Assembly: GCA_035693825.1 (NCBI GenBank)
Contig: DASSGB010000207.1
Span: 384 to 64,383, forward strand
Source of the DNA: Anaerolineales bacterium
GTDB taxonomy: Bacteria > Chloroflexota > Anaerolineae > Anaerolineales > E44-bin32
Direction of reading: 5' to 3'
Length of the DNA stretch: 64,000 nt
In this document: positions 14,787-40,199 of the stretch, piece after piece
How the letters are laid out: each line of letters starts with the position of its first letter
How positions within the stretch are numbered: position 1 is the first letter of the stretch
Made by a program: the position numbers and the translations under genes
Notes under the pieces: model-generated
Database searches by the model: none
Told to the model about the DNA's origin: nothing
What the model saw: the letters and a program-made list of their open reading frames with translations, nothing else

Positions 14787-14950
14787 CAGTGGACAGTGGA
14801 CAGTAGTGGGTGGTCAGCTGGAATGCGTACGGACCACCGGCCACTCACCCTGCGCTTCGTCTTGCGGAAGTAAGGTAAGCGCAGGGGTCACCCCTGCGCT
14901 TCGTCTTGCGGAAGCAAGGTAAGCGCAGGGGTCACCACTGACCACTGATC
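14787..14950. repeat. composite palindromic element: (CAGTGGA/T)n - two tandem 43/44-nt hairpin units - (ACCACTG)n
   Basis: Units at 14846..14888 and 14889..14932: CACCC(C)TGCGCTTCGTCTTGCGGAAG(T/C)AAGGTAAGCGCAGGGGT. Flanked by CAGTGGACAGTGGACAGTAGTGGGTGGTCAG on the left and CACCACTGACCACTGA on the right. Confidence 0.9.
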
Positions 14951-15411
14951 TAGCCCCGGCTGGCCTCTGTTTCCTTCAGCCCATCGAGAAGCTGTTGGAG
15001 CAGACGCAGCAAGGCCAGCTGGTCGGACCGATTCATTCCGCGCAGCGCCCTTCGCCAGCGAAGATCGAGTCGCCGCGGCACCGCTCGCAGCAGGGCCCGG
15101 CCGCGAAGCGTCAAACGCACCGCCACCCGCCGACGATCGCTCGACGAGCGGCGCCGGGCGACCCAGCCGCGCCGCACGAGCAGGTCGACGATGGCCGTCA
15201 TCGTGGCCGGGTCCTGCAGGCTGGCCTGCGCCAGCTCGGCCATCCCCACCTCGCGCCGGGCCGTCGCCAGGTAGACCAGCGGCACGTATTGGGCCACCGT
15301 CAGTCGGAACGGGTCCAGATCCTCGGCCAACTCCCGCCGCACCCGCCACCATAGGTGGAGCGCCAGAGGCAGAAGGGAGCGCGCTTCCAGCGAAGTTTCG
15401 GTTCGTGCCAT
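14950..15411 (-). CDS. MarR-family transcriptional regulator
   Basis: Winged-helix core TVAQYVPLVYLATARREVGMAELAQ...LVRRGWVARRRSSSDRRRVAVRLTLRG. Confidence 0.85.
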   Translation of the reverse strand: MARTETSLEARSLLPLALHLWWRVRRELAEDLDPFRLTVAQYVPLVYLATARREVGMAELAQASLQDPATMTAIVDLLVRRGWVARRRSSSDRRRVAVRLTLRGRALLRAVPRRLDLRWRRALRGMNRSDQLALLRLLQQLLDGLKETEASRG

Positions 15412-15541
15412 AGATTATTTGTATCACGAAACGAAATTGCCTATCGACAGACAGCCGAACAGCAATTGACAAACCTCCGGGGCGCGCCGTATGCTTGACA
15501 CACAGTTTCCGAGTCTCCGTTCCTCCTGGATGTAAGCGACC
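15412..15541. promoter_or_regulatory. divergent MarR / alpha-oxoamine synthase control region (lower GC, promoter-like hexamers)
   Basis: The most AT-rich intergenic stretch nearby. TTGACA at 15466..15471 with TATGCT 18 nt downstream (15490..15495), and a second TTGACA at 15495..15500. A likely site of MarR autoregulation or control. Confidence 0.3.
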
Positions 15542-16774
15542 ATGACCGCATCGAATCTGTCGTCCGCCTCCGCCGCCCCGGCGAAGGCACCCCTGGATAT
15601 CTTCGCCAAGTGCGGCGAATTCACCGACGCGCGTTTGGCGCAGGCCGCCGGCCTGTACCCCTACTTTCTTCCCCTGGAAGACACCGAGGGGACCGAGGTC
15701 GTGGTCAACGGCCGCCGCATTTTGATGATCGGCTCGAACAATTATCTCGGGCTGACCCAGGACCCGCGCGTGCGCAAGGCCTCCATGGAGGCCGTCGAGC
15801 GCTACGGCACGTCGTGCACCGGCTCGCGCTTTCTGAATGGGACCCTCAAGCTCCACCAGGAACTCGAGGCGCGGCTGGCTGCCTTCGTGGCCAAGCCGGC
15901 CGCCCTGGTCTTCAGCACCGGTTACCAGGTCAACGTGGGCACGATCTCATGTCTCGTCGGCCGGGGCGATGTCGTCATCGCCGACAAGGACGATCACGCG
16001 TCGATCGTCGACGGCTGCATGCTGGCGCTGGGCGAGCTGCGGCGCTTCAACCACAATGACCTGCCCCATCTGCAACGCGTCCTGGCGGGCCTCGACGACA
16101 AGGTCGGCCGCCTGGTGGTCGTCGACGGGGTGTATTCGATGGGCGGGGATCTGGCGCCGCTGCCCGAGCTCGTTCCGATGTGCCACCGATACGGCGCCCG
16201 GATCATGGTCGACGACGCCCACAGCCTGGGAGTCATGGGTCGCGGGCGCGGCACGGCGGCGCACTTCGGCCTCACCGACCAGGTCGATCTGATCATGGGC
16301 ACGTTCAGCAAGTCATTCGCCTCGCTGGGCGGGTTCATCGCCGGAGACGACGACGTCGTTCACTACATCCAGCACCACGCCCGATCGCTGATCTTCAGCG
16401 CCTCCATGCCGGCCTCGAATGTGGCCGCCGTCCTGGCGTCGGTGGACATCATGGAGAACGAACCCGAGCGCGTCGACCGACTGTGGGCCGTCACCGAGCG
16501 TATGCGCACCGGGTTGAAAGCCATGGGCTTCCACATGGGCCCCAGCGTGACGCCTATCATCCCTATCGTCACCGGCGATATGGCGACGACGATCCTGGCG
16601 TGGAAGAAATGCTTCGAGGCCGGCCTGTACACCAACGCCGTCCTGGCGCCGGCGGTGCCGCCCGATGAGTGCCTGCTGCGCACGTCGTATATGGCGACCC
16701 ACACCGACGAGCAGATCGATCGGGCCTTGAGCATCCTGGGCGACGTCGGGCTGGAACTCGGCCTGATCAGCTGA
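15542..16774 (+). CDS. PLP-dependent alpha-oxoamine synthase, serine-palmitoyltransferase-like
   Basis: LYPYFLPLEDTEGTEVVVNGRRILMIGSNNYLGLT, VDDAHSLG, and PLP-lysine block GTFSKSFASLGGFIAGD. As I recall, TFSKS..GGF is the SPT-type form, versus GTLGKA in KBL/ALAS and TFGK in BioF. Confidence 0.8.
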   Translation: MTASNLSSASAAPAKAPLDIFAKCGEFTDARLAQAAGLYPYFLPLEDTEGTEVVVNGRRILMIGSNNYLGLTQDPRVRKASMEAVERYGTSCTGSRFLNGTLKLHQELEARLAAFVAKPAALVFSTGYQVNVGTISCLVGRGDVVIADKDDHASIVDGCMLALGELRRFNHNDLPHLQRVLAGLDDKVGRLVVVDGVYSMGGDLAPLPELVPMCHRYGARIMVDDAHSLGVMGRGRGTAAHFGLTDQVDLIMGTFSKSFASLGGFIAGDDDVVHYIQHHARSLIFSASMPASNVAAVLASVDIMENEPERVDRLWAVTERMRTGLKAMGFHMGPSVTPIIPIVTGDMATTILAWKKCFEAGLYTNAVLAPAVPPDECLLRTSYMATHTDEQIDRALSILGDVGLELGLIS

Positions 16775-16918
16775 AGCTGCGCGCTCTCCGCGCGTTCGCC
16801 GCCGACGCCAAGCCTCATGCCGGACCAGTCTTCCCTGCCGATCACGGCAAGCCGCGGTCTTCTGCCTCCTTCAGCACACCTTCGTAAGATCGAGCCTTCG
16901 ACCCACCCGGGATAGGAC

Positions 16919-17998
16919 ATGGGCACCAAACGGGAGTATCCTCGCCCGGTGAGCTCGCTCGGGTTGGAAATGACGCCTCCAGAAACGTCCCGTGCCCATC
17001 GCTCCTTTGGCGTGGCGCTCGTCACAGGCGCCAGCGGCTTTCTCGGCTCGCGGCTGTGCCGGGCGCTATGCGCTCAAGGAGTCCAGGTCCGGGCCCTGCA
17101 TCGCTCGACCTCGTCGCTCGTCGGGTTGGAAGGTTTGCCGGTGGAAACGTCGGTCGGCGACATCCTCGACTCCTCGACTCTGGCGCCGGCCGTGCGAGGG
17201 GTGGACATCGTCTTCCACGTCGCCGCCCAATCAGACTACTGGCGAAACCCTCAAGGCGTCGTTCGGGCGGCCGCCGATGGAACGCGCAACGTCATCCAAG
17301 CCGCCGCCGACGCCCGCGTCCGACGGGTCGTGTTGACCAGCTCGGTGGGAGCGCTGGGAGTACCGCGGCGCGGCGAGCTGCTCAACGAGCAACACGCCTT
17401 CAATCTGGCCCCGCGCGCTTTTCCCTACGGCTATGCCAAGCACGCCTCCGAACAAGTCGCCCGGCGCGCGGCCGAGGGCCGCCTGGAGCTGGTGATCGTC
17501 AATCCGTCGATCGTCCTGGGGCCGGGAGACCTCAACCGCATCAGCGGTTCGATCATTCTGGAGGCGGCGCGCGGCCTGGCGTTTGTCACGACCGGCGGCG
17601 GCGCCAACTACATCCACGTCGACGACGTGGCCGACGGCCACCTAGCGGCTGCCGACCGAGGCCGCCCGGGTGAGCGCTACATCCTCGGCGCAGAGAACCT
17701 CACCCACACCGAGGCCCTGACCGCTGTCGCCCACATGGTTGGGCGCAGGGGGCCGTGGCTCCACCTCCCAGACGCGGCCATCCCGGTTGTCGCTTGGCTG
17801 ATGGACATCGCCGGGCGCTTCGCCCGCCTGCCGATGAACGCCGCCCAGATGCGCCTGAGCCGCCACCGGCTGTTCTGCGATGTGAACAAGGCACGCACCG
17901 AGCTGGGATTTGCAGCTTCGCGAAGCTTCCAGCAAGCGGCTCAGGAGGCGTATGATTGGTACCGCGCCCAGGGGATGCTCCCGGGCGCGTCGACATAG
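16919..17998 (+). CDS. NAD(P)-dependent epimerase/dehydratase-family SDR (HpnA/dihydroflavonol-reductase-like)
   Basis: VTGASGFLGSRLCRAL Rossmann motif and YGYAKHASE (YxxxK). Start uncertain: 16919, or ATG 16970 (MTPPETS). Confidence 0.8.
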   Translation: MGTKREYPRPVSSLGLEMTPPETSRAHRSFGVALVTGASGFLGSRLCRALCAQGVQVRALHRSTSSLVGLEGLPVETSVGDILDSSTLAPAVRGVDIVFHVAAQSDYWRNPQGVVRAAADGTRNVIQAAADARVRRVVLTSSVGALGVPRRGELLNEQHAFNLAPRAFPYGYAKHASEQVARRAAEGRLELVIVNPSIVLGPGDLNRISGSIILEAARGLAFVTTGGGANYIHVDDVADGHLAAADRGRPGERYILGAENLTHTEALTAVAHMVGRRGPWLHLPDAAIPVVAWLMDIAGRFARLPMNAAQMRLSRHRLFCDVNKARTELGFAASRSFQQAAQEAYDWYRAQGMLPGAST

Positions 17999-18053
17999 TC
18001 GCAGAGAGGGGATGGGCGACGTCGACACCGATCCATGAACGTGCGGGGGTGGG

Positions 18054-19193
18054 GTGTCTAGAACCAGGTCTTCGCCGAAGGTCGGCCCGGAGTCGACCCC
18101 TTTCGTCCCTCCTTATCCACCCAGCTGGTTCGATCGCTTCACCACTTGGGTGGATCGCTTGCCCGGCCCCGCCTGGCTGACCTATCTTGTAATGGCCGCG
18201 GCAGGATCTGCGCTGTTCATCCTAGCCGCGAGAACCGGCGGCGACTACCGTCCCGGTGAATTCCTCGCCTTCCACGTCTGGATCGCCGCGCAAGCCGTCT
18301 ATATGCTGGGCCTCATGCATTACCTCGACCGGTCTGCAGGATCCGCGGTGGTCAACTTCCGGTCCATGATCGACGGGCATCGGCCCTCGGCCAGATCGGG
18401 TGTCGACGACTCCACCACCTTCGCCGACCTTCGCTACCGGCTGACGACCTTGCCGCCGCGGCCGACGTGGCTGGCGGCCCTGGCCGGCGCCGCTTTTGGA
18501 TTCGCGCTTCCCTTCCTGTTCCTTGGCTCCGACGTCGCCGATCCGCGGTCGGCCGCGGTCCTCGCCCGGTTCGGATTCTCCTCCCCTTCGGTCTTCTTCC
18601 TTCGCTTCTTCCAGGCGTACTTCATCCTTATCGAAGCCGTCTCGGGCACGCTCGTATTCCACACCGTTCATCAGCTGCGCCAGATCAGTCAGGTCTATGC
18701 CTCCCAGACACGGCTAAACTTGTATCGTCTTCAGCCCTTGTATGCCTTCTCCGTTCCCGCCGGCCTGACCTCCGCCGGCCTCATCCTCTACACCTACGCG
18801 TGGTTCGGGACCGCTCCGATGCTCCTGGCCGAGCCCATCAGCCGCATGATCGGCTTCTTCTTCGTCGCCGTGGCGGCGATGACCTTCGCCTGGCCTCTTC
18901 TCGGCATCCATCGCCGCCTGGTGGATGAGAAGAAGCGTTTGCTGGCGAAGAGCGCGGAGAAGTTCGAGGCCACGGTTGCTGAATTGCATCGCAGGGTGGA
19001 CGAGAACGCCCTGAAGGCCATGGACGATCTCAACAAGACATTGAGCAGTCTGGAAATCGAGCAGACAGCGTTGAGGCGGATACCCACCTGGCCCTGGGAG
19101 CCGGGCACGCTGCGCGGCGTCATCGCCGCGCTCATCCTGCCCATCGCCATCTGGCTGATTCAACTTCTCCTCGGCCGGTGGCTGGCGGCCTGA
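18054..19193 (+). CDS. polytopic membrane protein of unknown function, paralog A
   Basis: GTG start. PPYPPSWFDRFTTWVDRLPGPAW, about 7 TM helices, then a coiled-coil (VAELHRRVDENALKAMDDLNKTLSSLEIEQ), PTWPWEPGT and a final TM. Clear paralog of the next gene. Confidence 0.6.
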   Translation: MSRTRSSPKVGPESTPFVPPYPPSWFDRFTTWVDRLPGPAWLTYLVMAAAGSALFILAARTGGDYRPGEFLAFHVWIAAQAVYMLGLMHYLDRSAGSAVVNFRSMIDGHRPSARSGVDDSTTFADLRYRLTTLPPRPTWLAALAGAAFGFALPFLFLGSDVADPRSAAVLARFGFSSPSVFFLRFFQAYFILIEAVSGTLVFHTVHQLRQISQVYASQTRLNLYRLQPLYAFSVPAGLTSAGLILYTYAWFGTAPMLLAEPISRMIGFFFVAVAAMTFAWPLLGIHRRLVDEKKRLLAKSAEKFEATVAELHRRVDENALKAMDDLNKTLSSLEIEQTALRRIPTWPWEPGTLRGVIAALILPIAIWLIQLLLGRWLAA

Positions 19194-19218
19194 GCCCAAC
19201 AGTTCCCGGGAGTCCCTT

Positions 19219-20352
19219 ATGAAGAAGCCCGTCAAGCCACGTCCCGATCCTCTGGCAGCCAAGGGCGCCCCCGTCTTCGTTCCTCCCTACTACCCCAGCT
19301 GGGTGGACCGCCTCACGCAGCGCATCGATCGGTTCCCGGGCCCCGCGTGGGCTTTCTACCTCGTCACCGGATTGTTGGCCTATCTCCTGATCAGCATGGT
19401 CCAGTGGTCCGCTGGCACGTATCCCGTGGGCACGTTCAGCCGCGTGCACGCCGTGGGGGCGTTCCTCACGCCCTACGCGCTGGGCCTGATGCATTACCTC
19501 GACGAATCGGCGAGCGCCTCAATGAAGGCTTTCCGTCCGGCCCTGCGCGCCGATGAGTCGTACCCGAGTCTGGCCTACATCCTGACCACCCTTCCGCCGC
19601 GCGCCGCGTGGTGGAGCGGCATCGCCAGCGTCGCGGTCGGCCTGGGGCTGGTGTTGACCGCCATCGTCCTCTTGCCTCATCCCGCCTCGCAGGCCGGCGG
19701 TCTCGCGCCCCTCACGGTTGGCTTCGCTCACATCTTCGAAGTCTCGCCGACGCCCTTGTCCTACGCGGTGACCCTGGCGCTGCTGGTCGTCAACTGGTTT
19801 GTGGGCGGCGCCCTCATCCTGCACACGGTCCGACGACTCACATTGGTAGCTCGACTCTATCGGCGGCACACGAACGTCGACGTCTTCCGGCAAGGACCCT
19901 TGTATGCCCTCTCGCGCCTGACGGCGCAGACCACCATCGGCGCCGCGGTTGTCCTCTACGGCATCGCCAGTGTGCCGACCTATACCGAACAGCTCCCCGG
20001 GCAGGTCATGGTTGCCGCGATAGCTCTGCTGGCGGCGGCGTCTTTTGCCTCTCCGTTGCTCGGCGTTCATCGGGTTCTGGCCACCGAGAGGGACCGCCTG
20101 ATGGAAGGGATTTCCGACAGGTTGCGTGTGGCGGGAGACGAGCTGCACCGCCGCATCGATCAGCGGCAGTACAAGGGCATGGATGAGCTCCACAAGGCCG
20201 TGGCGGCCCTCGAGATCGAACGCAACATGATCGCCGCCATGCCCACCTGGCCCTGGCAACCGGACACTTTCCGCTGGGTCCTGGCGGCGATGATCCTGCC
20301 CGTGGTCATCTGGGTGGTCCAGCTTCTCCTGGAGCGAGCGCTTACGCCCTGA
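19219..20352 (+). CDS. polytopic membrane protein of unknown function, paralog B
   Basis: PPYYPSWVDRLTQRIDRFPGPAW ... GDELHRRIDQRQYKGMDELHKAVAALEIER ... PTWPWQPDT ... VVIWVVQLLLE. Collinear with paralog A over the full length. Confidence 0.6.
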   Translation: MKKPVKPRPDPLAAKGAPVFVPPYYPSWVDRLTQRIDRFPGPAWAFYLVTGLLAYLLISMVQWSAGTYPVGTFSRVHAVGAFLTPYALGLMHYLDESASASMKAFRPALRADESYPSLAYILTTLPPRAAWWSGIASVAVGLGLVLTAIVLLPHPASQAGGLAPLTVGFAHIFEVSPTPLSYAVTLALLVVNWFVGGALILHTVRRLTLVARLYRRHTNVDVFRQGPLYALSRLTAQTTIGAAVVLYGIASVPTYTEQLPGQVMVAAIALLAAASFASPLLGVHRVLATERDRLMEGISDRLRVAGDELHRRIDQRQYKGMDELHKAVAALEIERNMIAAMPTWPWQPDTFRWVLAAMILPVVIWVVQLLLERALTP

Positions 20353-20387
20353 CCCAAACCCGTTTTGCTGCGCAAAACGGGTTTGGG
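20353..20387. repeat. GAAACCCGG-TTGC hairpin family, copy 2 (perfect 16-bp stem, directly after the stop codon)
   Basis: CCCAAACCCGTTTTGC-TGC-GCAAAACGGGTTTGGG. Confidence 0.85.
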
Positions 20388-20445
20388 TTCTCACCTCGCC
20401 TTTTGGACGGGTGACGTCCGCTGCGCGGGTGTTACGATTCGCCGC

Positions 20446-22293
20446 ATGACAAATCCGGTGATCGGGTGGCGGGCTCGGTGGGCGGCGACGCGACTCAAGG
20501 TCGGCGACGCCGCCCACAACGTGCTCCGCGCCTTTCGTCTCGTGTGGGAATCGCACCCGCCGACGGCGCTGCTGATGGGCGTCTGGACGCTGGTGGGCTC
20601 GGCTCTGCCGGCCGGGCAGGCCTGGGTGGGGAAATTGATCGTGGACGCGGTGGTCGCCTCGATCCGCGATTCCGTCGGGGCCGAGGCCGGCCTGCGCGCC
20701 ATCCTGCCTCTTCTGGGGGCGGAGTTCGCGCTGTTGTTCCTGCAGTCGGGCATCAGCCAGGCGCGCAGTCTGACCGAACACATCCTCCATTCACGCCTCA
20801 ACCTCAGCATCAACGCCCGCATCATCCGCAAGGCCCTCGAACTCGATCTCTCCCACTTCGAGAACGCCGAGTATTACGACAAGTTGCAGAACGCCCGCCG
20901 GGAAGCTGATTGGCGCGGCCTGCAGATCGTCAACGGCGGGTTCTATCTCGTCCAGAATATCCTGACGCTCTTGTCCTTCAGCGCCCTGCTGCTGCGCTTC
21001 AGCCCGTGGCTGGCGTTGATTCTGTTTCTGGCAACGTTGCCGGCCTTCGTCGCCCAGAGCAACTACGCCGATTTGACGTTCCGCGTCATCTCGTGGCGCG
21101 CCCCCGAGTCCCGCAAATTGAAGTACCTCGAGCACCTGCTCACGGACTACGAATCCGCCAAGGAGGTCAAGCTGTTCGGGCTGGGGGAGCCGCTGCTCGG
21201 CCGCTACGCCGACCTGTTCTGGAAGTTCCTGAAGGAAGACCAGGTCATTGCCCAGAAGCGCAGCCTGGCTTCGCTCGGATGGGGCTTGCTGGCAACGCTG
21301 ACCTACTACGGATCGTACGCGTGGATTGTCTTCCGCGCCGTCGGCGGAACCATCACCCTGGGCGACATGACGCTCTACCTCGGCATTTTCCGCAGCAGCC
21401 AGCAGACGTTCGAGTCGATCTTCTGGGGTCTGAGCGAGCTCTACGAGAACGGCCTGTTCATGAGCAATCTGTTCGCGTTCCTCGAACTCAAGCCCCTCAT
21501 GCCGGTGGCGGCCCACCCGGTGCGGCAGGCGCCGCGGCCGCCGCGCGGCATCGAAGTCCAGCACGTCTACTTCCGCTACGACGGTCACGAAGACGATGCG
21601 CTTCGAGATGTCAATCTGGTGATCCGGCCGGGGGAGAAAATCGCCCTGGTCGGGCCCAACGGCGCAGGCAAGACGACCCTGATCAAGCTCCTCACGCGTC
21701 TCTACGATCCCACCCAGGGACGAATCCTGTTCGATGGCGTCGACCTGCGGGATTACGACCCCGACGTTCTTCGCCGCCGGATCGGCGTCATCTTCCAGGA
21801 CTACGTTCGTTTCCATCTCACCGCCGCCGAAAACGTCGGCTTCGGCCAGATCGACGCCTTGCAGGACCGGCCGCGCATCGAGACGGCCGCCGGAAAGAGC
21901 GGCGCCCATCCGGTCATTGCTGCGCTGCCCGAAGGCTACGAGACGACTCTCGGCCGGTGGTTTTCCAAGGGCCGCGATCTCTCCGGCGGGGAGTGGCAGA
22001 AGATCGCCCTGGCCCGGGCCTTCATGCGCAGCTGCGACATCCTTGTGCTCGACGAGCCCACGGCCGCCCTCGACGCCGAGAATGAGCTGCGTGTCTTCCA
22101 GCAGTTCAAAGCGCTGACCGAGGACAAGATGGCGGTGCTGATCAGCCACCGTTTCTCAACGGTGCGCATGGCCGATCGCATCTACGTCCTCGACGAAGGC
22201 CGCATCATCGAACAAGGCACCCACGCCGAGCTGCTCGCCCAGGGCGGCACCTACGCCCGGCTGTTCACCCTGCAGGCGGAGTCGTACCGGTAG
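20446..22293 (+). CDS. ABC exporter, fused permease/ATPase (MsbA/lipid- or multidrug-type half transporter)
   Basis: Six-TM domain, then Walker [10 protein letters not shown], signature [14 protein letters not shown], Walker [14 protein letters not shown]-loop ISHRF. Start at ATG 20446, downstream of the hairpin. Confidence 0.85.
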
Positions 22294-26361: not shown

Positions 26362-26582
26362 GGCCCTACCGGGGACTTGGAGCGAACTACGCGGCCCAGG
26401 TAGCTGTCGGGCGAGCGCCGGGCCCGCCCGGATGATCGTCCCGGGTGGTGCCTTCCGCCCCTCCCCCGCTCCGCGGGGGAGGGGTTGGGGGTGAGGGCCA
26501 TACCCGTCGCCCAACGTCCCCTGGGATGCGTTCCCGGCTTCAAGTCCCCTACGGGATGCGAAGCGCGATCCCCGGCAGGGCC
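26362..26582. repeat. about 220-nt nested-palindrome MITE-like element, copy 1
   Basis: Outer inverted repeat GGCCCTACCGGGGACTTGG ... CTTCAAGTCCCC...CCCCGGCAGGGCC. Middle inverted repeat GTCGGGCGA / TCGCCCAAC. Core CCCCTCCCCCGCTCCGCGGGGGAGGGGTTGGGGGTGAGGGC. The right end overlaps the last 11 codons of the prenyltransferase gene. Confidence 0.8.
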
Positions 26583-27583
26583 CGGATAATCCACGGCACC
26601 AGGAGATTCAAGGCCAGCCCGAGGACGAACATGCCGCCCGCCAGTTTGTTGTGGTAGAAAGCCGCCGCCACGTACCATAACGGCCAGACGGGGTAGTTTT
26701 CCGGCGGCTTCTCGGGCCGAGGCTCGCGGTAGATCTTCCACACACGCCGCAATCGGGGGAGGGCTGCAGCCACCAGCAGCACCCACGGCCCGAGTGTGCC
26801 GGTCAGAACCAGCGCCAGAACGATGATGTAGTAGGCAACCATCAGCCCCAGGTTGACCGACAGGGAGGCCTGCTCGCCGATCAGCACGGGGATGGTGCGG
26901 ATGCCTTTGGCCTCGTCGGCCTTGCGCTTGTCGATATGCTTGCCTATGAGCACCGTCGTCACCACCAGCGCGTAGGGAACGCACGCCCACCACACGCCGG
27001 CCGGGGGCAAGACCCCTGCCGATACGAAGTACGTTCCGCCAATCATCAGCGGGCCCCACACCAGAAAGACGCCCGGCTCGCCCAGGCCGTGGTGCTTGAG
27101 GCGGATAGGCGGCGCGACGTAGAACACGCTGATGAACAGCCCCAGCGCGGCGAAGACCAGCACCGGCCAACCGGTTCGCAAAAACAACACCAAGAGGATG
27201 AGGGCATCGACCAGGTTGAAGGCCAGGATCGCCAGGCCCAGCCCCCGGCGCGAGATCAAACCGCCCAGGATAGGGTGCGGCGCGTACTGCGCCCGCGCGT
27301 AATCCTGCGTGTCCACGCCGGCTTCCAGGTCGAAGAAGTCGTTGATCATGTTGTTGGAGGCATGAGCGATGAGCAGCCCCACCCAGGCCAGGACGAAGTT
27401 GAGCCCGTCGATTCGCCCGACGGTCGCCAGCGCCAGAAGGCCGCCGATGAGACCGGAGATGCCGGTCATCGAAAAGACGGCCGCCCGCGTGATGATCAGC
27501 CAGCGGCTGATGAAATCCATGCGCTTGCCGGCTGACAGGTTGGCGGTGTCGATGACTTCTTTCCAGTTCGCCAGGAGGGACAT
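26549..27583 (-). CDS. UbiA-family aromatic prenyltransferase (MenA-like)
   Basis: NNMINDFFDLEAGVD (NxxxDxxxD) and a second Asp-rich region, about 9 TM helices. The C-terminal ...RALPGIALRIP is encoded by the repeat element. Confidence 0.8.
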   Translation of the reverse strand: MSLLANWKEVIDTANLSAGKRMDFISRWLIITRAAVFSMTGISGLIGGLLALATVGRIDGLNFVLAWVGLLIAHASNNMINDFFDLEAGVDTQDYARAQYAPHPILGGLISRRGLGLAILAFNLVDALILLVLFLRTGWPVLVFAALGLFISVFYVAPPIRLKHHGLGEPGVFLVWGPLMIGGTYFVSAGVLPPAGVWWACVPYALVVTTVLIGKHIDKRKADEAKGIRTIPVLIGEQASLSVNLGLMVAYYIIVLALVLTGTLGPWVLLVAAALPRLRRVWKIYREPRPEKPPENYPVWPLWYVAAAFYHNKLAGGMFVLGLALNLLVPWIIRALPGIALRIP

Positions 27584-27681: not shown

Positions 27682-28920
27682 TTAGGCTGGGCGACTTCGA
27701 ATCCAAAGGTAGCCGCCCACGAGCAGGATAGCCAAGAGCGCGGCGACGGTCGCGACCGAACTCGGGTCGTCGCCGTCCGTCGACGCAGGCCGGGTCGCAG
27801 CCGGGTGCGCCGTGGGCGAGGCAGCAGCCGTAGGACGAGCGGTTGCAGCCTCTGTCGGCGTCGAGGGCGGTTCGAAGCTCGGCTGGGCGCGAGCGGCCAG
27901 GAACCAACCGGCCGCCAGGGGATCCGTCTTGAAGAACGCCATCAACAGGCCGGCGACCTTCTCCCGTCCGCCGGGAGAGGGATGGGTGCAGTCTTCCGTC
28001 AGATCCTCGGGCGTCCAGATCAACCCGTCGGGGCGCGGGTTCATGCCGTCGACCCACAAGTATGGTCCCCAGACGAGAACAGGAGCCACGACCTCTCCCC
28101 TTTCCGGATCGAAGTTGAGCTCAGCCTCGCCGTTGATTTGCTCTTCGATCAACCAGCGCACGGCAAATCCGGTTTCGAACGCGACCGGCTCCGGGCTGAT
28201 GCCGCGGTCATACAGAAAGGATCGTGTGCGACTCGACAGGAAGGCGATGCGCAAGTTAGGAAAGCGGCTCTTGAGATTTCGGACGATGTCTCCCAACGCG
28301 GCCTGCAGCTCGCGGGCCTTGTCGGGGAAATCTCCGCCCCCGAGCAGCGTCTGTTTGACCCAGGCGACTTGTACTTGAAGATGCGTGACCTCCGCTCGCT
28401 CCAGCCGGGCGTCGAGCTCCGTCCAGGCGAGGGCCTCCGAGTTGACCCAGCGATCCGCCGTCTGCCCACTGAGCGCGCCGTTGGTGATCGTCAGACTTGG
28501 ATTGATCTCCGGATCCCCGTGCCCCAGGTCCATGAAGCCCTGGAATTCCATCTGGGCGTTGGACATGCCCACGGAGATCAGAACGATTCGGCCGCCTGAA
28601 GGATCGGGGTCTCCCTGCGAGTTAAGCGGGGTGATCCGAGCCGCGGCTTCCAGGGCAGCGGCTGCGTGCGCGGCCGACGGCACGTTGGACCCGTTTGGAT
28701 ACAGGCCTCCAACATAGCCCGTCGCTCTTCCATCCATGCGGATGTACTCCGCTGCCTCCAGTTGGGGAAGCGGCAGGCTGACGTCGCGGTGCACGCCAGC
28801 GCAGACTTCGCGGGCGCGTTCGCGCTCCGAATGCGCGGATACAGGCGAGGTCGGCCCCAGGCGATACAAAAGCCCTATGGCGGCGATCAAGCCGGGAAAG
28901 ACACGGATCAAGGAACGCAT
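27682..28920 (-). CDS. secreted protein, possibly SGNH-hydrolase-like, with Pro/Thr/Ala-rich linker and C-terminal TM anchor
   Basis: N-terminal signal (LIAAIGLLYRL...SAHS), ISVGMSNA / NGALSGQTA / CTHPSPGG blocks, linker PSTPTEAATARPTAAASPTAHPAATRPAS, then VATVAALLAILLVGGYLWIRSRPA. Confidence 0.45.
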   Translation of the reverse strand: MRSLIRVFPGLIAAIGLLYRLGPTSPVSAHSERERAREVCAGVHRDVSLPLPQLEAAEYIRMDGRATGYVGGLYPNGSNVPSAAHAAAALEAAARITPLNSQGDPDPSGGRIVLISVGMSNAQMEFQGFMDLGHGDPEINPSLTITNGALSGQTADRWVNSEALAWTELDARLERAEVTHLQVQVAWVKQTLLGGGDFPDKARELQAALGDIVRNLKSRFPNLRIAFLSSRTRSFLYDRGISPEPVAFETGFAVRWLIEEQINGEAELNFDPERGEVVAPVLVWGPYLWVDGMNPRPDGLIWTPEDLTEDCTHPSPGGREKVAGLLMAFFKTDPLAAGWFLAARAQPSFEPPSTPTEAATARPTAAASPTAHPAATRPASTDGDDPSSVATVAALLAILLVGGYLWIRSRPA

Positions 28921-29026: not shown

Positions 29027-30058
29027 GTGCGTGTCCTCGTCACAGGTGCTACGGGCTTCCTCGGCTCCAATATCACCCGCGGGCTCGTCGCCGCCGGTCA
29101 TCGTGTCCGCGTCTTGGCCCGGCCGCAGAGTCCCCTCGACTTGCTCACGGCCTTGCCGATAGAGATCGTTCGAGGCGATGTGCGCGCTCCGGCGAGTCTC
29201 GCTCCCGCCGTCGACGGGATGGAGGCGGTCATCCATTGCGCAGCTCAGATGCGCGGCGGTCGCAACCTCGCCGAGCGGATCCGCAGCCACCTGGATGGAA
29301 CCCGCAAGATGCTCGCCGCCGCCCGAGACGCGCGCCTCGCTCGATTCGTCCACGTTTCATCGGTGGCCGCCCTGGGCATCCCCGATGCGCCGCCGGCGGC
29401 CAGCGACGCCGGGGCCATCGCTCTGGATGAGACGCACACCTGGAATGCGCCTGCAGAAATGTGGCCGTACGGATTCGCCAAACATCAAGCCGAAGAGGAA
29501 GTCCGGTCGGCCGCAGCCTCGGGCCTAGAAGCGGTGATCGTCAATCCGTCCATCGTCTTCGGCGCGGGCGATCGCAACCGCGTGTCGAACGCGCTTCTGC
29601 TGCACGCGGCTCGCGGCCGTCTGCCTCCCATCCTCCCGGGCGGTGTGGGCGTCGTGCATGTCGAGGATGTCGTGGACGGGACCCTGGCCGCATTGGAGAA
29701 GGGCCGGAGCGGAGAGCGTTACATCCTCAACAGCGAGAACCTGACGGTCGAGCGTCTCCTGCAGATGGCGGCCGAGGTCGCCGGTGTCGAGCCGCCGCGA
29801 GTGCGTCTCTCGCTGAGGACGGCCCGCAGGCTGGCCTGGATGGCGAATGTGCTGGCGTTTCGATTCCGAATCGGAACGCGTCCGGTGCTGCTCGACCTGG
29901 CCGGGCGCTATTTCTACTACGATTCTCGCAAGGCGCGTCGTGAGCTCGGGGTGTCGCTGGCCCGGCCGGCGCGGCTGGGAGCGCAACAGGCCCTGGCCTG
30001 GTACGCCGATCCGACGCCTTTGCGGGCCCGCAACGAGCGTCCTGAATCCGGTGTGTGA
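29027..30058 (+). CDS. NAD(P)-dependent epimerase/dehydratase-family SDR (paralog of 16919..17998)
   Basis: GTG start. VTGATGFLGSNITRGL and YGFAKHQAE. Collinear similarity to the 16919 gene (APAVxGxxxVxHxAAQ, DGTRxxxxAAxDARxxRxVxxSSVxALGxP). Confidence 0.8.
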   Translation: MRVLVTGATGFLGSNITRGLVAAGHRVRVLARPQSPLDLLTALPIEIVRGDVRAPASLAPAVDGMEAVIHCAAQMRGGRNLAERIRSHLDGTRKMLAAARDARLARFVHVSSVAALGIPDAPPAASDAGAIALDETHTWNAPAEMWPYGFAKHQAEEEVRSAAASGLEAVIVNPSIVFGAGDRNRVSNALLLHAARGRLPPILPGGVGVVHVEDVVDGTLAALEKGRSGERYILNSENLTVERLLQMAAEVAGVEPPRVRLSLRTARRLAWMANVLAFRFRIGTRPVLLDLAGRYFYYDSRKARRELGVSLARPARLGAQQALAWYADPTPLRARNERPESGV

Positions 30059-33201: not shown

Positions 33202-34242
33202 CTAGGGACCTGTACCCCGGGGCCGAGAGCGGCTGGCCAGCCACAGCGCCTCTTCCGCCAGCAACGTCTCCCGCCAGGCCTGCTCCGCGGGCCGGAACTT
33301 CAGCCCGAGATCCGCCTCAGCCTTGCTCGACGTGTAGCGAAACGAGACGTAGGCGCTTCGAACCGCCTCCAGCGACACGAACTCGCGAAGCCCCAGCATG
33401 GGGAGGGCTGGCCCGAGGACCGCGCTCTGCGCCAGAGCCAGGCTGCGCGGAAGCCACAGCCACACGGCTTTTCGGTGCATGGTTTCTTCCCAGACGTCGA
33501 TCATTTCTCGCACGGTAAGGATGTGGCCGCCGAGAAAGTAGATCTCGCCGGGCCGGCCCCGTTCGGCGACGGCCAGCATGCCATCGGCCACATCGTCGAC
33601 GTGGGCGAAAGTGAACGCGCCGTCCGGTGCCCACGCCAGGGGAGGCAGTCTTCGCCGGACGAAAAGGCGGGCCGGGATTCCGAACACGGAGTGGTCCCCG
33701 GGGCCGATGACCTGCGCCGGACAGGCGATGATCACCGGCTCGCCCGCGGCCTGGTGCCTCAAGGCGAGGCGGTGGGCCTCGGCCTTGGTATGTTCATAGA
33801 AGGAATTCCACGGCTTCCGGCGCTCGAACGACTCATCCTCGACCGCGCCTCCTGTGTCTCCCAGGGCCGTCGTGGAGGAGGTGAACACCGTGCGCGCGAC
33901 GCCGGCCTCGGCCGCGAGCGTCAAGGCATGCTCGGTGCCTTCGACGTTCACCGCCCACATGCGCCGCTGGAGTCGCCGCGGGATTCCGTACTCGTACCAC
34001 CCGGCGTTGTGGAAAAGGAATCTCGGACGGGCAACGTCCAGCGCGGCCTTCAGCGTCTCTCGCTGGGTCACGTCCCCCAGCAACAGCCGCGCCCCTTGAG
34101 CCGCCAGGCCGCGGGCCCGGTCTGAATCCGGCTGACGGACGAGGACATACACCTCCCAGCCGCGACGCAGCGCGGCCTTGGTCAGCTGGCGCCCGATGAA
34201 ACCCGTCGCGCCCGTGATCAGGGCCCGCGGCTTCACGCTCAT
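33202..34242 (-). CDS. NAD(P)-dependent epimerase/dehydratase-family SDR
   Basis: ITGATGFIGRQLTKAAL and YEHTKAEAH (YxxxK). The ATG overlaps the sbcC stop (ATGA at 34239..34242). Confidence 0.8.
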   Translation of the reverse strand: MSVKPRALITGATGFIGRQLTKAALRRGWEVYVLVRQPDSDRARGLAAQGARLLLGDVTQRETLKAALDVARPRFLFHNAGWYEYGIPRRLQRRMWAVNVEGTEHALTLAAEAGVARTVFTSSTTALGDTGGAVEDESFERRKPWNSFYEHTKAEAHRLALRHQAAGEPVIIACPAQVIGPGDHSVFGIPARLFVRRRLPPLAWAPDGAFTFAHVDDVADGMLAVAERGRPGEIYFLGGHILTVREMIDVWEETMHRKAVWLWLPRSLALAQSAVLGPALPMLGLREFVSLEAVRSAYVSFRYTSSKAEADLGLKFRPAEQAWRETLLAEEALWLASRSRPRGTGP

Positions 34243-36332: not shown

Positions 36333-36445
36333 CCCTGCACCTCATCTGAAGAAAGTGAGGTAAGTGCAGGGGTCACCCCTGCGCCTCCTTTGGCGGAAGA
36401 GCGGTAAGCGCAGGGGTCACCCCTGCGCCTCATCCAAGGCAAGAG
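36330..36445. repeat. tandem array of 2.7 x 44-nt hairpin units between sbcD and sbcC
   Basis: 36330..36373 CACCCCTGCACCTCATCTGAAGAAAGTGAGGTAAGTGCAGGGGT. 36374..36417 CACCCCTGCGCCTCCTTTGGCGGAAGAGCGGTAAGCGCAGGGGT. A partial third unit follows. Same family as 14846..14932, 47021..47063 and 61608..61691. Confidence 0.9.
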
Positions 36446-37705
36446 TCACTTTCGCCCTCCGCGGCCCGTTGCAGTCGGCGCGGGCGGGTTCTCCTCGACG
36501 AGTTCTTCCGCCCGCTGGAGGAGCGACTCCACGCGCGCGTCTTTCACGCCCCTGCCCCGGAAATACTGCTCGACGAGCTGCAACGGCGTCAGCGTTTCGA
36601 AGGCCGCCTCGCCCAGCCGGGCACGCGCCTCGCTCTCCATCAGGCGCGAGATGGTCAGGTTGTTGGCGCCCTCCAGGGCCGCCTCGATCTCGCGCTCGCG
36701 CAGCTGCGCCTGCTGATCGACTCGCAGGGTGACCAGCACGCGCACAATCGCTCCGTCGATCGGGATCGAGCTCGCCGCCCGAACGACGGCGGCCGTAGGG
36801 TCGGACTCGCTGCGCACGTCGACGGTGACGGTGCGAAAGGGCCGCGCCGCGACCGGCTGGAACGACCAGCGCGTCGACCCGCGCGCCAGCTCCACCCAGC
36901 AAAAACCTTTCGGCTCGTCCTCCTCGCCGAAATCGATTCTCTCGAGAGAGCCGCTGTAGACGACCTGGGGATAGCCGCCGGGATTGAGCACCTGGTGCTT
37001 GTGGATGTGGCCCAGGGCGACGTAGTCCCAGGCCGTGTCGTTGAGGGTGGATGTCAGCACGGCCACATCGCGGCCAAGCATGACGGTGCGTTCGGATCCC
37101 AGGCGCGCCTCGGCCACCGAGAGATGGCCCGCCAGCAAGCGCGGCATCGGCTGCGACCGGGCTTCCTCGGCCAGCCCCGCCAACACCTCCGACACCGTCT
37201 GGCGAAGTGCGGCCTCGAGCTGCTCGATGGTCTTGCCGGCGTGCTCCTCACGCGTGAGCAGCCGGTTGCGCATCGGGTAGGGAATCCAGGCCAGATACAC
37301 CGGGCCTCGACGGGTCTCGACGACGCGGCCCTCGGCCTTGTGGCCGACGATGACGCCGGGCACGTCCAGGGCCTGGAAGATGTCGACGCTGCTGGCTTTG
37401 GCGGCCATGCCCGGCATGTCGTGATTGCCCACCAGAAGCAGCGTGGGCATGTGATCGGCCAGACGCTTCATGCGCTGAGCGAACTCCCGCTGCTGCGTGG
37501 GCTCGGGATCCCGGTTCTTGAATGCGTCTCCGGCGAAGACCGCCAGGTCGCCATCCTGGAGAATGGCGAAGTCGATCACTTCGTCCAGGCGATCCAGGAA
37601 ATCGCGCACGCGGCTGGAGGTGCCGGTTTCGGGATCCAGCCGGCCGTAGTTCTCCATGCCGATATGGGCGTCGGCGAAATGCAGGACTCGCAGCGGTTCG
37701 GCCAT
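36446..37705 (-). CDS. sbcD: SbcD/Mre11-type nuclease
   Basis: Calcineurin-like phosphoesterase motifs HFADAHIG, GDAFKN, GNHD and LGHIH. C-terminal capping domain. Confidence 0.85.
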   Translation of the reverse strand: MAEPLRVLHFADAHIGMENYGRLDPETGTSSRVRDFLDRLDEVIDFAILQDGDLAVFAGDAFKNRDPEPTQQREFAQRMKRLADHMPTLLLVGNHDMPGMAAKASSVDIFQALDVPGVIVGHKAEGRVVETRRGPVYLAWIPYPMRNRLLTREEHAGKTIEQLEAALRQTVSEVLAGLAEEARSQPMPRLLAGHLSVAEARLGSERTVMLGRDVAVLTSTLNDTAWDYVALGHIHKHQVLNPGGYPQVVYSGSLERIDFGEEDEPKGFCWVELARGSTRWSFQPVAARPFRTVTVDVRSESDPTAAVVRAASSIPIDGAIVRVLVTLRVDQQAQLREREIEAALEGANNLTISRLMESEARARLGEAAFETLTPLQLVEQYFRGRGVKDARVESLLQRAEELVEENPPAPTATGRGGRK

Positions 37706-40010: not shown

Positions 40011-40199
40011 CTCCGCCCGCAAGCAGGATCGGAGCAGCCATTGCGTTGTCGCGCCCTCGGCGGTATAGTCTCGCATTGCTGCCGCCCCGGGTGAGGGAGC
40101 GGCAGCCTGTCCATATCGTCCGAATCCGCCTGGAGCTATCACCCGGGCATCTATCGTCATCTCTGTGCGGCCTGCCGCGCCGGGCCCTGGAGGCTTCCG

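Follow-up and report, generated by a model that had tools for sequence, protein, structure and literature searches.

In Caulobacter, ceramide synthesis by Spt, bCerS and CerR couples an Spt-type enzyme to an NAD(P)-dependent reductase of the epimerase superfamily (PMC11087976; queries in PMC11334938). The bacterial serine palmitoyltransferases (SPTs) of Sphingobacterium multivorum (SmSPT; PDB 3A2B/8GUH) and Sphingomonas paucimobilis are soluble alpha-oxoamine synthases (AOSs) of ~400 aa, and SPT enzymes accept alanine and glycine at low efficiency (PMC10196870). The AOS fold and an AOS-then-reductase logic are also found for the cysteate acyltransferases SulA and CapB of capnine sulfonolipid synthesis (PDB 7U7H). 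A flippase for sphingolipids is not yet known from bacteria (PMC11087976).

Here, we compared these systems with a locus in a 64-kb stretch of DNA (the window) from an uncultured Anaerolineales (Chloroflexota) bacterium, in which a MarR gene diverges from five genes on the same strand (Table 1). It is moderately probable that this locus is a MarR-headed sphingoid-base operon, composed of a core of an AOS and an extended short-chain dehydrogenase/reductase (SDR) and an accessory module of seven-transmembrane (7-TM) proteins, an ABC exporter and MarR. The coupling of an Spt-type enzyme to an epimerase-superfamily reductase and the predicted product, a ceramide backbone, resemble the Caulobacter pathway, whereas the bCerS (GNAT), ACP and acyl-ACP synthetase genes are not nearby here.

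Table 1. Features of the locus (positions within the window)
Feature	Position	Strand	Remarks
MarR-family transcriptional regulator	14950..15411	-	153 aa; Pfam MarR; opposite-facing to operon
Divergent intergenic control region	15412..15541	.	Contains both of the sigma-70-like promoter matches of the 7.9 kb scanned
SPT-like AOS, PLP enzyme (core gene 1)	15542..16774	+	410 aa
Extended SDR, putative 3-keto reductase (core gene 2)	16919..17998	+	359 aa
Membrane protein A ("memA" orthogroup)	18054..19193	+	379 aa
Membrane protein B ("memB" orthogroup)	19219..20352	+	377 aa
ABCB-type half transporter	20446..22293	+	615 aa counted from ATG

All six open reading frames were recovered at the positions given by the initial annotation, and their codon-position GC contents (GC3 of 0.80–0.88 versus GC2 of 0.43–0.52) indicate that they are real coding frames. 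With these starts, the five same-strand genes are separated by 144, 55, 25 and 93 nt, in agreement with the initial annotation. Homologs of the SDR are typically 326–328 aa long and cover ~90% of the query, and its true start is probably downstream of 16919, at Met18 (16970) or later, which would widen the AOS–SDR gap to at least 195 nt. The reading frame of the ABC gene extends open as far upstream as a TTG at 20365, and the 615-aa start is backed by relatives of 615–616 aa.

In the 7.9 kb scanned, two sigma-70-like sites were found versus 0.7 expected by chance, and both are confined to the marR–AOS spacer: TTGACA-18-TATGCT on the plus strand (15466–15495, 10/12) and TAGGCA-18-AATAAT on the minus strand (15443–15414). 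The -35/-10 block and the marR-adjacent CATAGAnTATTTnTAnCACGAAA block are conserved with the related locus L013 and partly with L003 (L numbers denote loci of relatives). Inverted repeats of at least 8 nt were absent from the spacer, whose function as an operator is only inferred. The intergenic gaps of the operon contain no terminator-like sites.

The strings LYPYF, TEVVVNG, ILMIGSNNYLGLT and GTFSKSFASLGGFIAGD were all found in the AOS, which the initial annotation had assigned to the SPT flavour rather than to BioF, KBL or ALAS. Pfam identified it as an Aminotran_1_2 protein. Among the NCBIfam models, the CFB-type SPT model scored highest with 521 bits, which is under the curated equivalog cut-off of 640 bits, so that the enzyme may use Ser, Ala or Gly as its amino acid; this model was followed by beta-type SPT (409), BioF (371), KBL (333), ALAS (231) and CqsA (215). 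The top PDB match was SmSPT (420 bits over residues 23–397), compared to ~245 bits for the cysteate acyltransferases and 225 bits for KBL. SPT thus leads every other class by at least 110 bits in both models and structures, and the AOS is, by these scores, clearly of the SPT type.

The active-site residues agree with this assignment. In the alignment, N66, G94, S95, F97, H152, S199, D224, A226, H227, T254, S256 and K257 of the AOS correspond to N52, G80, S81, F83, H138, S185, D210, A212, H213, T241, S243 and K244 of SmSPT, respectively, and R380 corresponds to its carboxylate-binding Arg (PMC10196870). The AOS thereby shares with the bacterial SPTs the PLP lysine, the stacking His, the Asp/His pair, the serine-contacting Asn and Gly-Ser, and the PAVP loop. 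The sole exception among the residues checked is Met271, a main-chain contact, which is replaced by Ile; other differences are that the AOS is from Chloroflexota, scores under the cut-off of the Bacteroidota SPT model and has no adjacent ACP gene. At the position of the diagnostic Lys281 of SulA, the AOS has the Spt-type Ala (A287) (PMC9304779).

In JGI and in some NCBI records, homologs are named 8-amino-7-oxononanoate synthase or 2-amino-3-ketobutyrate CoA ligase, and the BioF and KBL models do match, which would suit a housekeeping enzyme of biotin synthesis or threonine catabolism. This assignment was rejected and is very improbable, because both scores are under their curated cut-offs (426 and 460 bits, respectively) and far under the SPT score, and the KBL and BioF matches in the PDB reach about half of that of SPT. 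As noted in the initial annotation, bioA, bioB, bioD and tdh are not nearby: none was found among the ~50 GC3-supported open reading frames of the window. In addition, the constant partner of the AOS is an SDR, joined in a sister clade by an acyl-ACP thioesterase.

For the SDR, Pfam confirmed the epimerase-family assignment (Epimerase, 119.8 bits; Epimerase/3Beta_HSD). The top NCBIfam match was HpnA (282 bits, under its cut-off of 368), and the top PDB match was the "putative oxidoreductase" 3WJ7 (191 bits), with cinnamoyl-CoA and dihydroflavonol reductases coming next. The Rossmann motif (G37xxG40xxG43) and the Ser-Tyr-Lys triad (S141, Y170xxxK174) are intact, and the protein groups with keto and thioester reductases; it looks like a working reductase. 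The reaction proposed for it, NAD(P)H-dependent reduction of the 3-keto group of a long-chain base, is identical to that of Bacteroides BT_0972 and eukaryotic KDSR. These two are classical short SDRs, whereas the SDR here is an extended SDR of ~330 aa in the HpnA/CCR/DFR-type group. CerR, in contrast, is described as NDUFA9-like and periplasmic, and the SDR here has no N-terminal hydrophobic leader. The SDR family is present in three copies within the window.

An SDR gene lies directly 3' of the AOS gene in L002/5, L003, L004, L011, L013, L042–L044, L047–L050, L053, L054, L060 and L062, and a second SDR clade (29–32% identity) occupies that position in 10 more loci. The two reading frames share 8 nt in L002 and L044 and are 8–14 nt apart in most metagenome loci with an AOS of at least 71% identity. 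In nine loci of a sister lineage, the SDR gene is followed by an acyl-ACP thioesterase gene, and this links the pair with long-chain acyl metabolism. Since almost all close relatives have an SDR from either of two clades behind the AOS, the two genes form a conserved core, and the functional tie between them suggested earlier is borne out by this recurrence. Part of the conservation may be mere shared descent, as neighbouring genes of unrelated function (SerRS, PFOR) are syntenic in the clade as well. The core most likely makes a sphingoid base.

By its domain matches, the last gene encodes a generic half transporter of the ABCB type (type IV exporter), in which an N-terminal TMD is followed by the NBD at the C-terminus and which presumably forms a homodimer. 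Pfam recognized the ATPase (ABC_tran, 114.5 bits) and, weakly, the TMD (ABC_membrane, E = 0.0014), and the PDB matches were ABCB19, ABCB4, ABCB1, Sav1866 and MsbA. It shares the half-transporter plan and all of the ATPase motifs (Walker A at 403, LSGG at 512, Walker B at 532 and H-loop at 568) with lipid floppases of the MsbA/ABCB4 type, whereas its TMD barely matches Pfam ABC_membrane and its best NCBIfam scores (MsbA_rel, 280 bits; MsbA, 274.7 bits) are far under the cut-offs (602 bits for MsbA). The label "MsbA-like" used previously is therefore too narrow. Chloroflexota are generally regarded as lacking LPS.

The MarR protein exceeded the Pfam cut-off (37.6 versus 24.6 bits) and reached no NCBIfam equivalog. 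In L003, L013, L042, L043 and L049, a MarR orthologue (59–78% identity) diverges from the operon in the same place and an ABC orthologue (70–84% identity) ends it, so that the order MarR–AOS–SDR–mem(2–4)–ABC is shared by these loci and the window. Among the loci whose completeness allows a judgement, MarR and the ABC gene never occur one without the other, and the exporter is missing from most AOS–SDR loci.

A regulator and an exporter that strictly co-occur around a short biosynthetic core are a typical export/resistance layout, and would also fit a small natural-product or signal cluster instead of a membrane-lipid pathway. The AOS and SDR would then make a secreted long-chain amino alcohol, either a 1-deoxy-sphingoid base from alanine or glycine, which SPTs use at low efficiency as described above, or a CqsA-like amino- or hydroxy-ketone signal; the ABC protein would export it, MarR would sense it, and the 7-TM paralogs would be receptors or give self-protection against a membrane-active product. 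Consistent with this, no N-acyltransferase was found in the window, and the 7-TM family also occurs in accessory, detox-like gene neighbourhoods elsewhere. We nevertheless regard this explanation as doubtful: with more than 120 homologous clusters at 80% identity or higher in Anaerolineales, the AOS shows extreme conservation in a syntenic housekeeping setting, which fits a core membrane function, its serine-contacting residues are intact, CqsA scored lowest of the AOS classes, and most AOS–SDR loci have no exporter.

Membrane proteins A and B are paralogs (36% identity, BLASTP E = 5e-70), as proposed, and neither matched a Pfam or NCBIfam model; protein A had no sequence match in the PDB. Their family comprises 2,309 clusters, almost only in Chloroflexota. 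The AlphaFold2 models are confident (pLDDT 87.6 and pTM 0.82 for A; 88.3 and 0.83 for B), and that of protein A is all-alpha with a 56-residue helix (261–316). For protein B, hydropathy and Lys+Arg counts fit an N-in/C-out topology with seven TM helices. Among 146 aligned sequences, 144 of which are representatives of 50%-identity clusters, Y21, S24, W25, D27, H203, Q207, H286, K293, T345-W-P-W348, R354 and P363 of protein A are conserved.

In Foldseek searches, protein A gave no significant match in the PDB or a viral set, and its only full-length alignments were with insect gustatory and odorant receptor channels (TM 0.28). For protein B, nothing in the PDB was below E = 0.001, and insect gustatory and odorant receptors were the top five and eight of the 11 best matches (Gr43a, 8X84: E = 0.047, probability 0.93, TM 0.33; Orco, 6C70: TM 0.30). 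The best structural analogy of the predicted models is thus the 7-TM ion-channel (7TMIC) fold of the insect chemoreceptors, whose superfamily includes the bacterial Bac7TMICs (Himmel et al., bioRxiv 10.1101/2023.08.30.555482). The seven TM helices and the predicted N-in/C-out orientation are shared, as are short outer and long inner loops, a TM6 with a cytoplasmic extension of ~35 residues, a cytoplasmic helix, kink (TWPW) and last TM helix that resemble the split TM7a/7b, a short conserved N-terminal helix at the place of TM0, and tandem paralog arrays. In contrast, none of the structural matches reaches significance (E = 0.047 at best; TM 0.33–0.34), and there is no sequence similarity.

The initial annotation had cast the two proteins as the missing acyltransferase or flippase steps. 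As integral-membrane enzymes they would N-acylate the base, like a non-GNAT ceramide synthase, or transfer a head group to it, and several observations are in keeping with this: invariant or nearly invariant polar residues (D27, H203, Q207, H286, K293 and R354) map to the predicted boundary between the membrane and the cytoplasm, the membrane genes are translationally coupled to the SDR gene in L002 (SDR/mem/mem spacers of +3 and -4 nt), and bCerS and CerR may have non-homologous replacements in some phyla (PMC11334938). A GNAT-type or bCerS-like domain was indeed absent, as previously noted, from the ~50 GC3-supported open reading frames of the window, as were ACP and acyl-CoA synthetase domains. 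Nothing supports an acyltransferase role, however, and an enzymatic role is quite unlikely. No similarity to acyltransferase, TLC/Lag1, MBOAT, PAP2, GT or flippase families was found with Pfam, NCBIfam, PDB profiles or Foldseek, and channel-type 7-TM receptors rank highest for both folds. Furthermore, the copies form tandem arrays of one to ~9, with 0 to ~9 beside the same AOS–SDR core, the family is unlinked to the AOS in 33 of 38 species-level loci, and the AOS-linked copies do not form one specialised clade.

Because most of the family is unlinked to the AOS, and L044, L054, L060 and L062 contain the AOS–SDR pair without it, operon position is its sole link to a lipid. The 7-TM paralogs, possibly with ABC and MarR, could be unrelated passengers between the AOS–SDR pair and the next housekeeping gene, kept by descent in one sub-lineage. 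The series VanW, HEAT, DUF456, SerRS, AOS, SDR, ..., PFOR is syntenic in the clade with or without the insert, the family has no conserved partner elsewhere, and MarR plus ABC would make a self-sufficient efflux unit. Such passengers are unlikely, since the genes share one strand, are closely spaced or overlap, and are not interrupted by promoter- or terminator-like sites, at least two orthogroups (memA and memB types) keep their place in genomes that share only 51–63% identity between their SDRs, and L045 contains a second, independent mem–SDR adjacency (abhydrolase–mem–SDR).

In the sphingoid-base pathway that we favour, the AOS would form 3-ketodihydrosphingosine by condensation of L-serine and a long-chain acyl thioester, and the SDR would reduce the 3-keto group, on the free base or its N-acylated form, to yield a sphingoid long-chain base for membrane sphingolipids; homology and residue conservation establish the enzyme identities, and the chemistry is inferred. 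This window contains no gene for the N-acylation step. In one sub-lineage, the core would have gained the accessory module with a variable number of 7-TM paralogs, which the ABCB-type exporter and MarR would join in some genomes. Given its family and co-occurrence, the exporter, controlled by MarR, would most plausibly carry the amphiphilic product (base or ceramide) across the cytoplasmic membrane by flipping or expelling it, and the 7-TM proteins would act on or respond to the lipid as channel-, sensor- or lipid-handling-type proteins rather than as the missing N-acyltransferase. Of the original interpretation, the SPT-type AOS, its SDR partner and the sphingoid base are retained, whereas the acyltransferase/flippase roles and the MsbA label are not.

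A sphingoid-base product is the best reading of the locus and agrees with metagenomic predictions for Anaerolineae: Spt-like proteins occur in 218 Chloroflexota MAGs, and ceramides of the deep Black Sea correlate with Anaerolineae (PMC11334938). Sphingolipid synthesis by Anaerolineae having already been predicted in this way (PMC11334938), the core is not new in kind; the new part of the locus, by Pfam and NCBIfam, is the membrane family, which may be among the published Bac7TMICs.

The six genes of the locus, which belongs to an uncultured Anaerolineales bacterium (Chloroflexota), were found as the initial annotation had placed them, on the plus strand except for the MarR gene, with gaps of 144, 55, 25 and 93 nt between the alpha-oxoamine synthase (AOS), the short-chain reductase (SDR), the two membrane protein genes (memA and memB) and the ABC transporter gene. 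The codon-position GC contents of the six genes (GC3 of 0.80–0.88 versus GC2 of 0.43–0.52) indicate that these are genuine coding frames and that the many overlapping ORFs are shadows.

Genes of the AOS locus in the window
Gene	Coordinates	Strand	Basis
MarR	14950-15411	-	ORF list and PF01047
AOS	15542-16774	+	ORF list
SDR	16919-17998	+	ORF list
Membrane protein A (memA)	18054-19193	+	ORF list
Membrane protein B (memB)	19219-20352	+	ORF list
ABC protein	20446-22293	+	ORF list

Nearly all of the SDR homologs are 326–328 aa in length and about 90% of the 359-aa ORF is covered; the true SDR start is probably Met18 or later, which would widen the AOS–SDR gap to at least 195 nt. The ATG at 20446 for the ABC protein is backed by orthologues of 615–616 aa. 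Only two sigma-70-like promoter matches were seen in 7.9 kb, back to back inside the marR–AOS spacer, and all of the terminator-like matches in the operon region lie within coding sequence. The -35/-10 block and the block adjoining marR are kept in a related locus, L013, and a conserved block is common to two relatives. No inverted repeat of at least 8 nt or palindrome that might serve as a MarR operator was found in the marR–AOS spacer, and no tRNA, tmRNA or Rfam match (riboswitches and small RNAs) came up to threshold across window positions 1–64000.

For the AOS, the serine palmitoyltransferase (SPT) profiles and structures headed all of the AOS classes. Among the NCBIfam models, the scores were 521 bits for the SPT of the CFB type, 409 for the beta type and 333 for the alpha type, and 371 for BioF, 333 for KBL, 231 for ALAS and 215 for CqsA. 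The curated equivalog cut-offs of the three SPT models (640, 500 and 670 bits, respectively) were not reached, but these models are taxon-specific, and the miss limits the naming of the enzyme without excluding the activity. In the PDB, the SPT of Sphingobacterium multivorum (SmSPT) gave 420 bits and that of Sphingomonas ~295–301 bits, whereas the non-SPT structures gave at most 263 bits (Thermus-type broad AOS, 263; cysteate acyltransferases, ~245; KBL, 225; BioF, 211).

The PDB alignment showed that the PLP lysine and the catalytic His/Asp/His are kept, with K257, H152, D224 and H227 of the AOS corresponding to K244, H138, D210 and H213 of SmSPT. The contacts to the serine carboxylate and hydroxyl are also kept (N66, G94-S95, S256 and R380, for Asn52, Gly80-Ser81, Ser243 and the carboxylate Arg), as are F97, S199, A226 and T254 (Phe83, Ser185, Ala212 and Thr241). 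The sole change among the SmSPT roles checked is Met271 to Ile, at a residue whose contact with the substrate is made by main-chain atoms (residue roles from PMC10196870). In addition, the single reported active-site difference between Spt and the sulfonolipid enzyme is Lys281 in SulA versus Ala in Spt (PMC9304779), and the AOS carries A287 in an FSAS motif, 30 residues past the PLP lysine, that is, the Spt-type Ala and not the Lys of the cysteate acyltransferases.

A BioF or KBL identity was rejected, since both scores fall below the cut-offs (371 versus 426 bits and 333 versus 460 bits, respectively) and the 64-kb window holds no bioA, bioB, bioD or tdh gene, the absence of which had already been remarked in the initial annotation. 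The scores, the conserved active site, Ala287 and the lack of biotin and threonine-dehydrogenase genes in the window together indicate that the AOS is SPT-like by every test run, as first proposed, with serine as the predicted substrate.

The SDR matches the Pfam Epimerase (119.8 bits) and 3beta-HSD families, and is an extended SDR with the Rossmann motif G37xxG40xxG43 and the Ser-Tyr-Lys triad S141 and Y170xxxK174. Its nearest structure is PDB 3WJ7, a “putative oxidoreductase”, followed by cinnamoyl-CoA and dihydroflavonol reductases, which represent the keto/thioester-reductase branch. An HpnA identity was rejected, with a score of 282 versus 367.65 bits for TIGR03466 and no squalene-hopene cyclase or hpn genes nearby. 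According to published work, Caulobacter CerR is an NDUFA9-like protein of the periplasm (PMC11087976). Matches to the SDR in the PDB (E ≤ 1e-10) were of the HpnA/CCR/DFR type and included no NDUFA9 chain, and the SDR has no N-terminal hydrophobic leader. We suspect that the SDR belongs to a subfamily other than CerR and would do the same job.

A second HpnA-like extended SDR, 42% identical to that of the operon, lies at 29027-30058 and has as neighbours a UbiA-family prenyltransferase (26549-27583) and a 412-aa ORF without a family (27682-28920), and a third HpnA-like SDR lies at 33202-34242. These two copies indicate an expansion of the HpnA-like SDR family in this genome, and the second SDR with its neighbours may point to a further lipid- or quinone-related locus.

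The loci of relatives were gathered in three ways, via the membrane protein family, via AOS homologs and via a metagenome scan. An extended SDR directly follows the AOS in almost all of the relatives whose AOS is at least 71% identical, often at a spacing of 8–14 nt and with an 8-nt overlap in two loci, and more distant AOS homologs (≤67% identity) are mostly solitary, amid sugar-metabolism genes. Two SDR clades occupy the slot after the AOS, one 55–79% and the other only 29–32% identical to the window SDR (the latter in 10 loci), and in nine loci with this second clade the SDR gene is followed by one for an acyl-ACP thioesterase. The recurrent adjacency, the two SDR clades in the same slot and the thioesterase partner indicate that AOS and SDR are a predicted functional pair under selection, tied to long-chain acyl metabolism. 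[quoted passage not shown]

At L071 (5271-8430) and in eight further loci from metagenomes, the AOS is 66–80% identical, the SDR is 29–32% identical and an acyl-ACP thioesterase (PF01643/PF13279) comes next. In this sister lineage, the putative sphingoid-base module takes another form, one of three genes.

No GNAT- or bCerS-like acyltransferase was found among the ~50 ORFs of the window, including those without a Pfam match, in agreement with the initial annotation, and no ACP or acyl-CoA synthetase gene was found in the same set. To our knowledge, the few bacteria in which sphingolipid synthesis has been elucidated are all Gram-negative models, and Chloroflexota have been predicted as sphingolipid producers from metagenomes alone. 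Spt-like proteins were reported in 218 Chloroflexota MAGs, and the abundance of ceramide and glycosyl-ceramide correlates with Anaerolineae (PMC11334938). The same study points out that the bCerS and CerR genes frequently lie apart, and that other proteins may take their place; its supplement holds no per-phylum co-localisation data. No lipid analysis reporting ceramides in cultured Anaerolineae was found in the literature.

Several other genes of the window were recorded. A 1,880-aa bacterial alpha-2-macroglobulin-like protein with MG2, A2M, bait-region, TED, bMG10 and Big_5 domains is encoded at 47506-53148 on the minus strand. The stretch 39405-42224 on the plus strand encodes an ICMT/MddA-like membrane methyltransferase (39405-40010) and, after it, two ORFs (162 and 511 aa) that match no family. 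At 34239-37705 on the minus strand, a 697-aa Rad50/SbcC-like ATPase with a zinc hook adjoins a 419-aa calcineurin-like phosphoesterase (Mre11/SbcD-like).

For the ABC protein, the ATPase motifs (Walker A at 403, signature at 512, Walker B at 532 and H-loop at 568) follow an N-terminal TMD, and the alignments to ABCB19 and the bacterial half transporter 8WCW run from residue ~90–105, covering much of the TMD, through the NBD. The PDB matches include ABCB19, ABCB4, ABCB1, Sav1866 and MsbA, that is, ABCB-type exporters generally. The label “MsbA-like” given in the initial annotation is too narrow, since the scores are far under the MsbA cut-offs (274.7 versus 602 bits and 218 versus 867 bits), and the protein is better termed an ABCB-type half transporter. 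The MarR protein carries the winged-helix domain PF01047 (37.6 bits, cut-off 24.6).

Among the loci complete enough to be judged, the ABC gene occurs in all of those with marR (the window, L003, L013, L042, L043 and L049) and in none of those without it (L002/L005, L004, L011, L044, L054, L060 and L062). This strict co-occurrence suggests that a MarR–exporter unit wraps the AOS–SDR–membrane protein genes.

The two membrane proteins are paralogs (36% identity, E of 5e-70) of a family for which no Pfam or NCBIfam model was matched, even when the 41 aligned members were all searched at E ≤ 5; the sole weak family match was PRK07377, a “hypothetical” and uninformative entry. Searching the PDB with a profile of the aligned family gave just coiled-coil lamin noise and no sequence relative. 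The family gave 243 matches in a word-indexed search and 2,309 clusters at 50% identity in an exhaustive profile search (E ≤ 1e-3), among the listed matches of which the members are single-domain proteins of mostly 330–395 aa. In the GTDB species representatives it occurs in 38 loci, nearly all in Chloroflexota MAGs (Anaerolineales, Thermoflexus, Litorilinea and Ca. Aquidulcis), with single matches in Methylomirabilota, Deinococcaceae and Microbacteriaceae MAGs.

An AOS/SDR lies within 10 kb of the membrane protein genes in only five of these 38 loci and a partial sixth, and no recurrent neighbour was found among them outside the close AOS-linked clade. The unlinked copies are single or tandem, and often lie amid small stress/detox-type genes or transposases. 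Beside the AOS–SDR pair, the number of copies is zero in L044, L054, L060 and L062, one in L011, two in the window, three in L042, L043 and L049, four in L003 and L013, six in L050 and ~9 in L002/L005. For L002, the spacing of the SDR and the next two membrane protein genes (+3 and -4 nt) indicates that these genes belong to the operon where present. A crude neighbour-joining tree showed at least two orthogroups, memA-type and memB-type, kept across the AOS-linked loci and interleaved with unlinked copies; in this tree the AOS-linked copies do not make up a single specialised clade. The accessory module, comprising the membrane proteins, the ABC protein and MarR, is lineage-restricted.

The array in L002/L005 (CAVZPO010000028.1, 8811-19384) holds ~9 tandem seven-TM (7-TM) paralogs after the AOS and SDR with no ABC or MarR gene, and is unusually large for a bacterial membrane protein family. 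In L042 (12520-15893), the three 7-TM genes between the SDR and the ABC gene are split into ORFs of 125–180 aa and the ABC protein matches in three pieces; the breaks may reflect pseudogenes or else frameshifts introduced by long-read assembly. In L045 (JBBDZX010000002.1, 16097-19046), an alpha/beta-hydrolase, a 7-TM member and an extended SDR are closely packed on one strand, with an overlap of 4 nt and no AOS nearby, which is a second, independent link of the family to an SDR. In L001, a 7-TM member adjoins a PEMT/ICMT-family gene, a parallel to the ICMT/MddA-like gene of the window that may be coincidental.

AlphaFold2 models, built on a 41-sequence alignment, are all-helical for both memA (pLDDT 87.6, pTM 0.82) and memB (pLDDT 88.3, pTM 0.83). 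The union of the model helices and hydropathy, together with the K+R counts, predicts seven TM helices in an N-in/C-out topology; the K+R residues number 5–8, 5–7, 4–7 and 12–14 in the N-terminus and inner loops, versus 0–2 in the outer loops. The outer loops are predicted to be short and the inner loops long. The predicted TM4 has 38–39 residues and TM6 has 56, with cytoplasmic extensions of ~15 and ~35 residues, respectively, and TM5 is unextended. A cytoplasmic helix (323-342), an invariant T-W-P-W kink and the last TM helix (350-378) resemble the TM7a/TM7b split of the 7-TM ion-channel superfamily (7TMIC), to which the insect odorant and gustatory receptors belong. The predicted fold also appears to fit the qualitative criteria of that superfamily and the remark that its prokaryotic members have short TM4/5 (bioRxiv 10.1101/2023.08.30.555482). 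In 146 aligned sequences, 144 of which are cluster representatives, the conserved positions fall in the N-terminal helix (Y21, S24, W25 and D27), at the inner ends of TM4 and TM6 (H203, Q207, H286 and K293) and in the TWPW/TM7 region.

Foldseek searches with both models gave no match at E ≤ 0.001 in the PDB and no significant match among the predicted viral structures of BFVD. The order of the PDB matches is consistent all the same. For memB, the insect gustatory and odorant receptor channels ranked as the top five and eight of the 11 best PDB matches, all non-significant. The top five were Gr43a and OR10 (E of 0.047–0.2, probability 0.72–0.93, TM score 0.29–0.34), with Gr43a at E of 0.047, probability 0.93 and TM score 0.33–0.34, and Orco gave a TM score of 0.30. 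For memA, the only full-length alignments, also non-significant, were to BmGr9 (E of 0.46, TM score 0.28), MhOR5 (TM score 0.28) and AgamOR28 (TM score 0.16–0.17). The likeness of the modelled fold to insect chemoreceptor channels is a lead, not a finding, and suggests that the membrane proteins may be channel- or receptor-like. The acyltransferase or flippase role first proposed for them found no positive support, and the channel-receptor ranking argues against it. CREST/PAQR, PAP2, CPBP and desaturase identities were rejected, the signature motifs of these families being missing from the conserved positions.

Overall, the core is real and a sphingoid-base pathway is the best supported reading; our confidence in this statement as a whole is slightly better than even, and it is higher for the AOS/SDR part. 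The undescribed 7-TM family, with a possible chemoreceptor-channel architecture in the models, is the element of greatest interest. In a joint reading that we consider unlikely, the paralogs would be bacterial homologs of the insect odorant/gustatory receptor channels with the 7TMIC fold, forming a large family almost confined to Chloroflexota, tandem-expanded with at least two orthogroups side by side and incorporated, in this lineage, into the sphingoid-base operon alongside the ABC exporter. Their role there would be that of channels or sensors, perhaps heteromeric, gated by lipids or long-chain bases.

The Spt-like AOS and the HpnA/CCR-type SDR provide a concrete, clonable two-gene core, with which the production of long-chain bases by Anaerolineae, and the type of reductase used, could be tested. 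A candidate for the export or flipping of sphingolipids is also encoded at the locus; bacteria have no known protein for this step (PMC11087976). The two membrane proteins expose a family without a Pfam or NCBIfam model, for which the structure models are confident and the closest analogy is an insect chemoreceptor channel. If this analogy is real, the operon becomes a testable hypothesis on the role of the bacterial members of the 7TMIC superfamily, and the joint reading, if true, would be the first to place a prokaryotic 7TMIC in a functional context.
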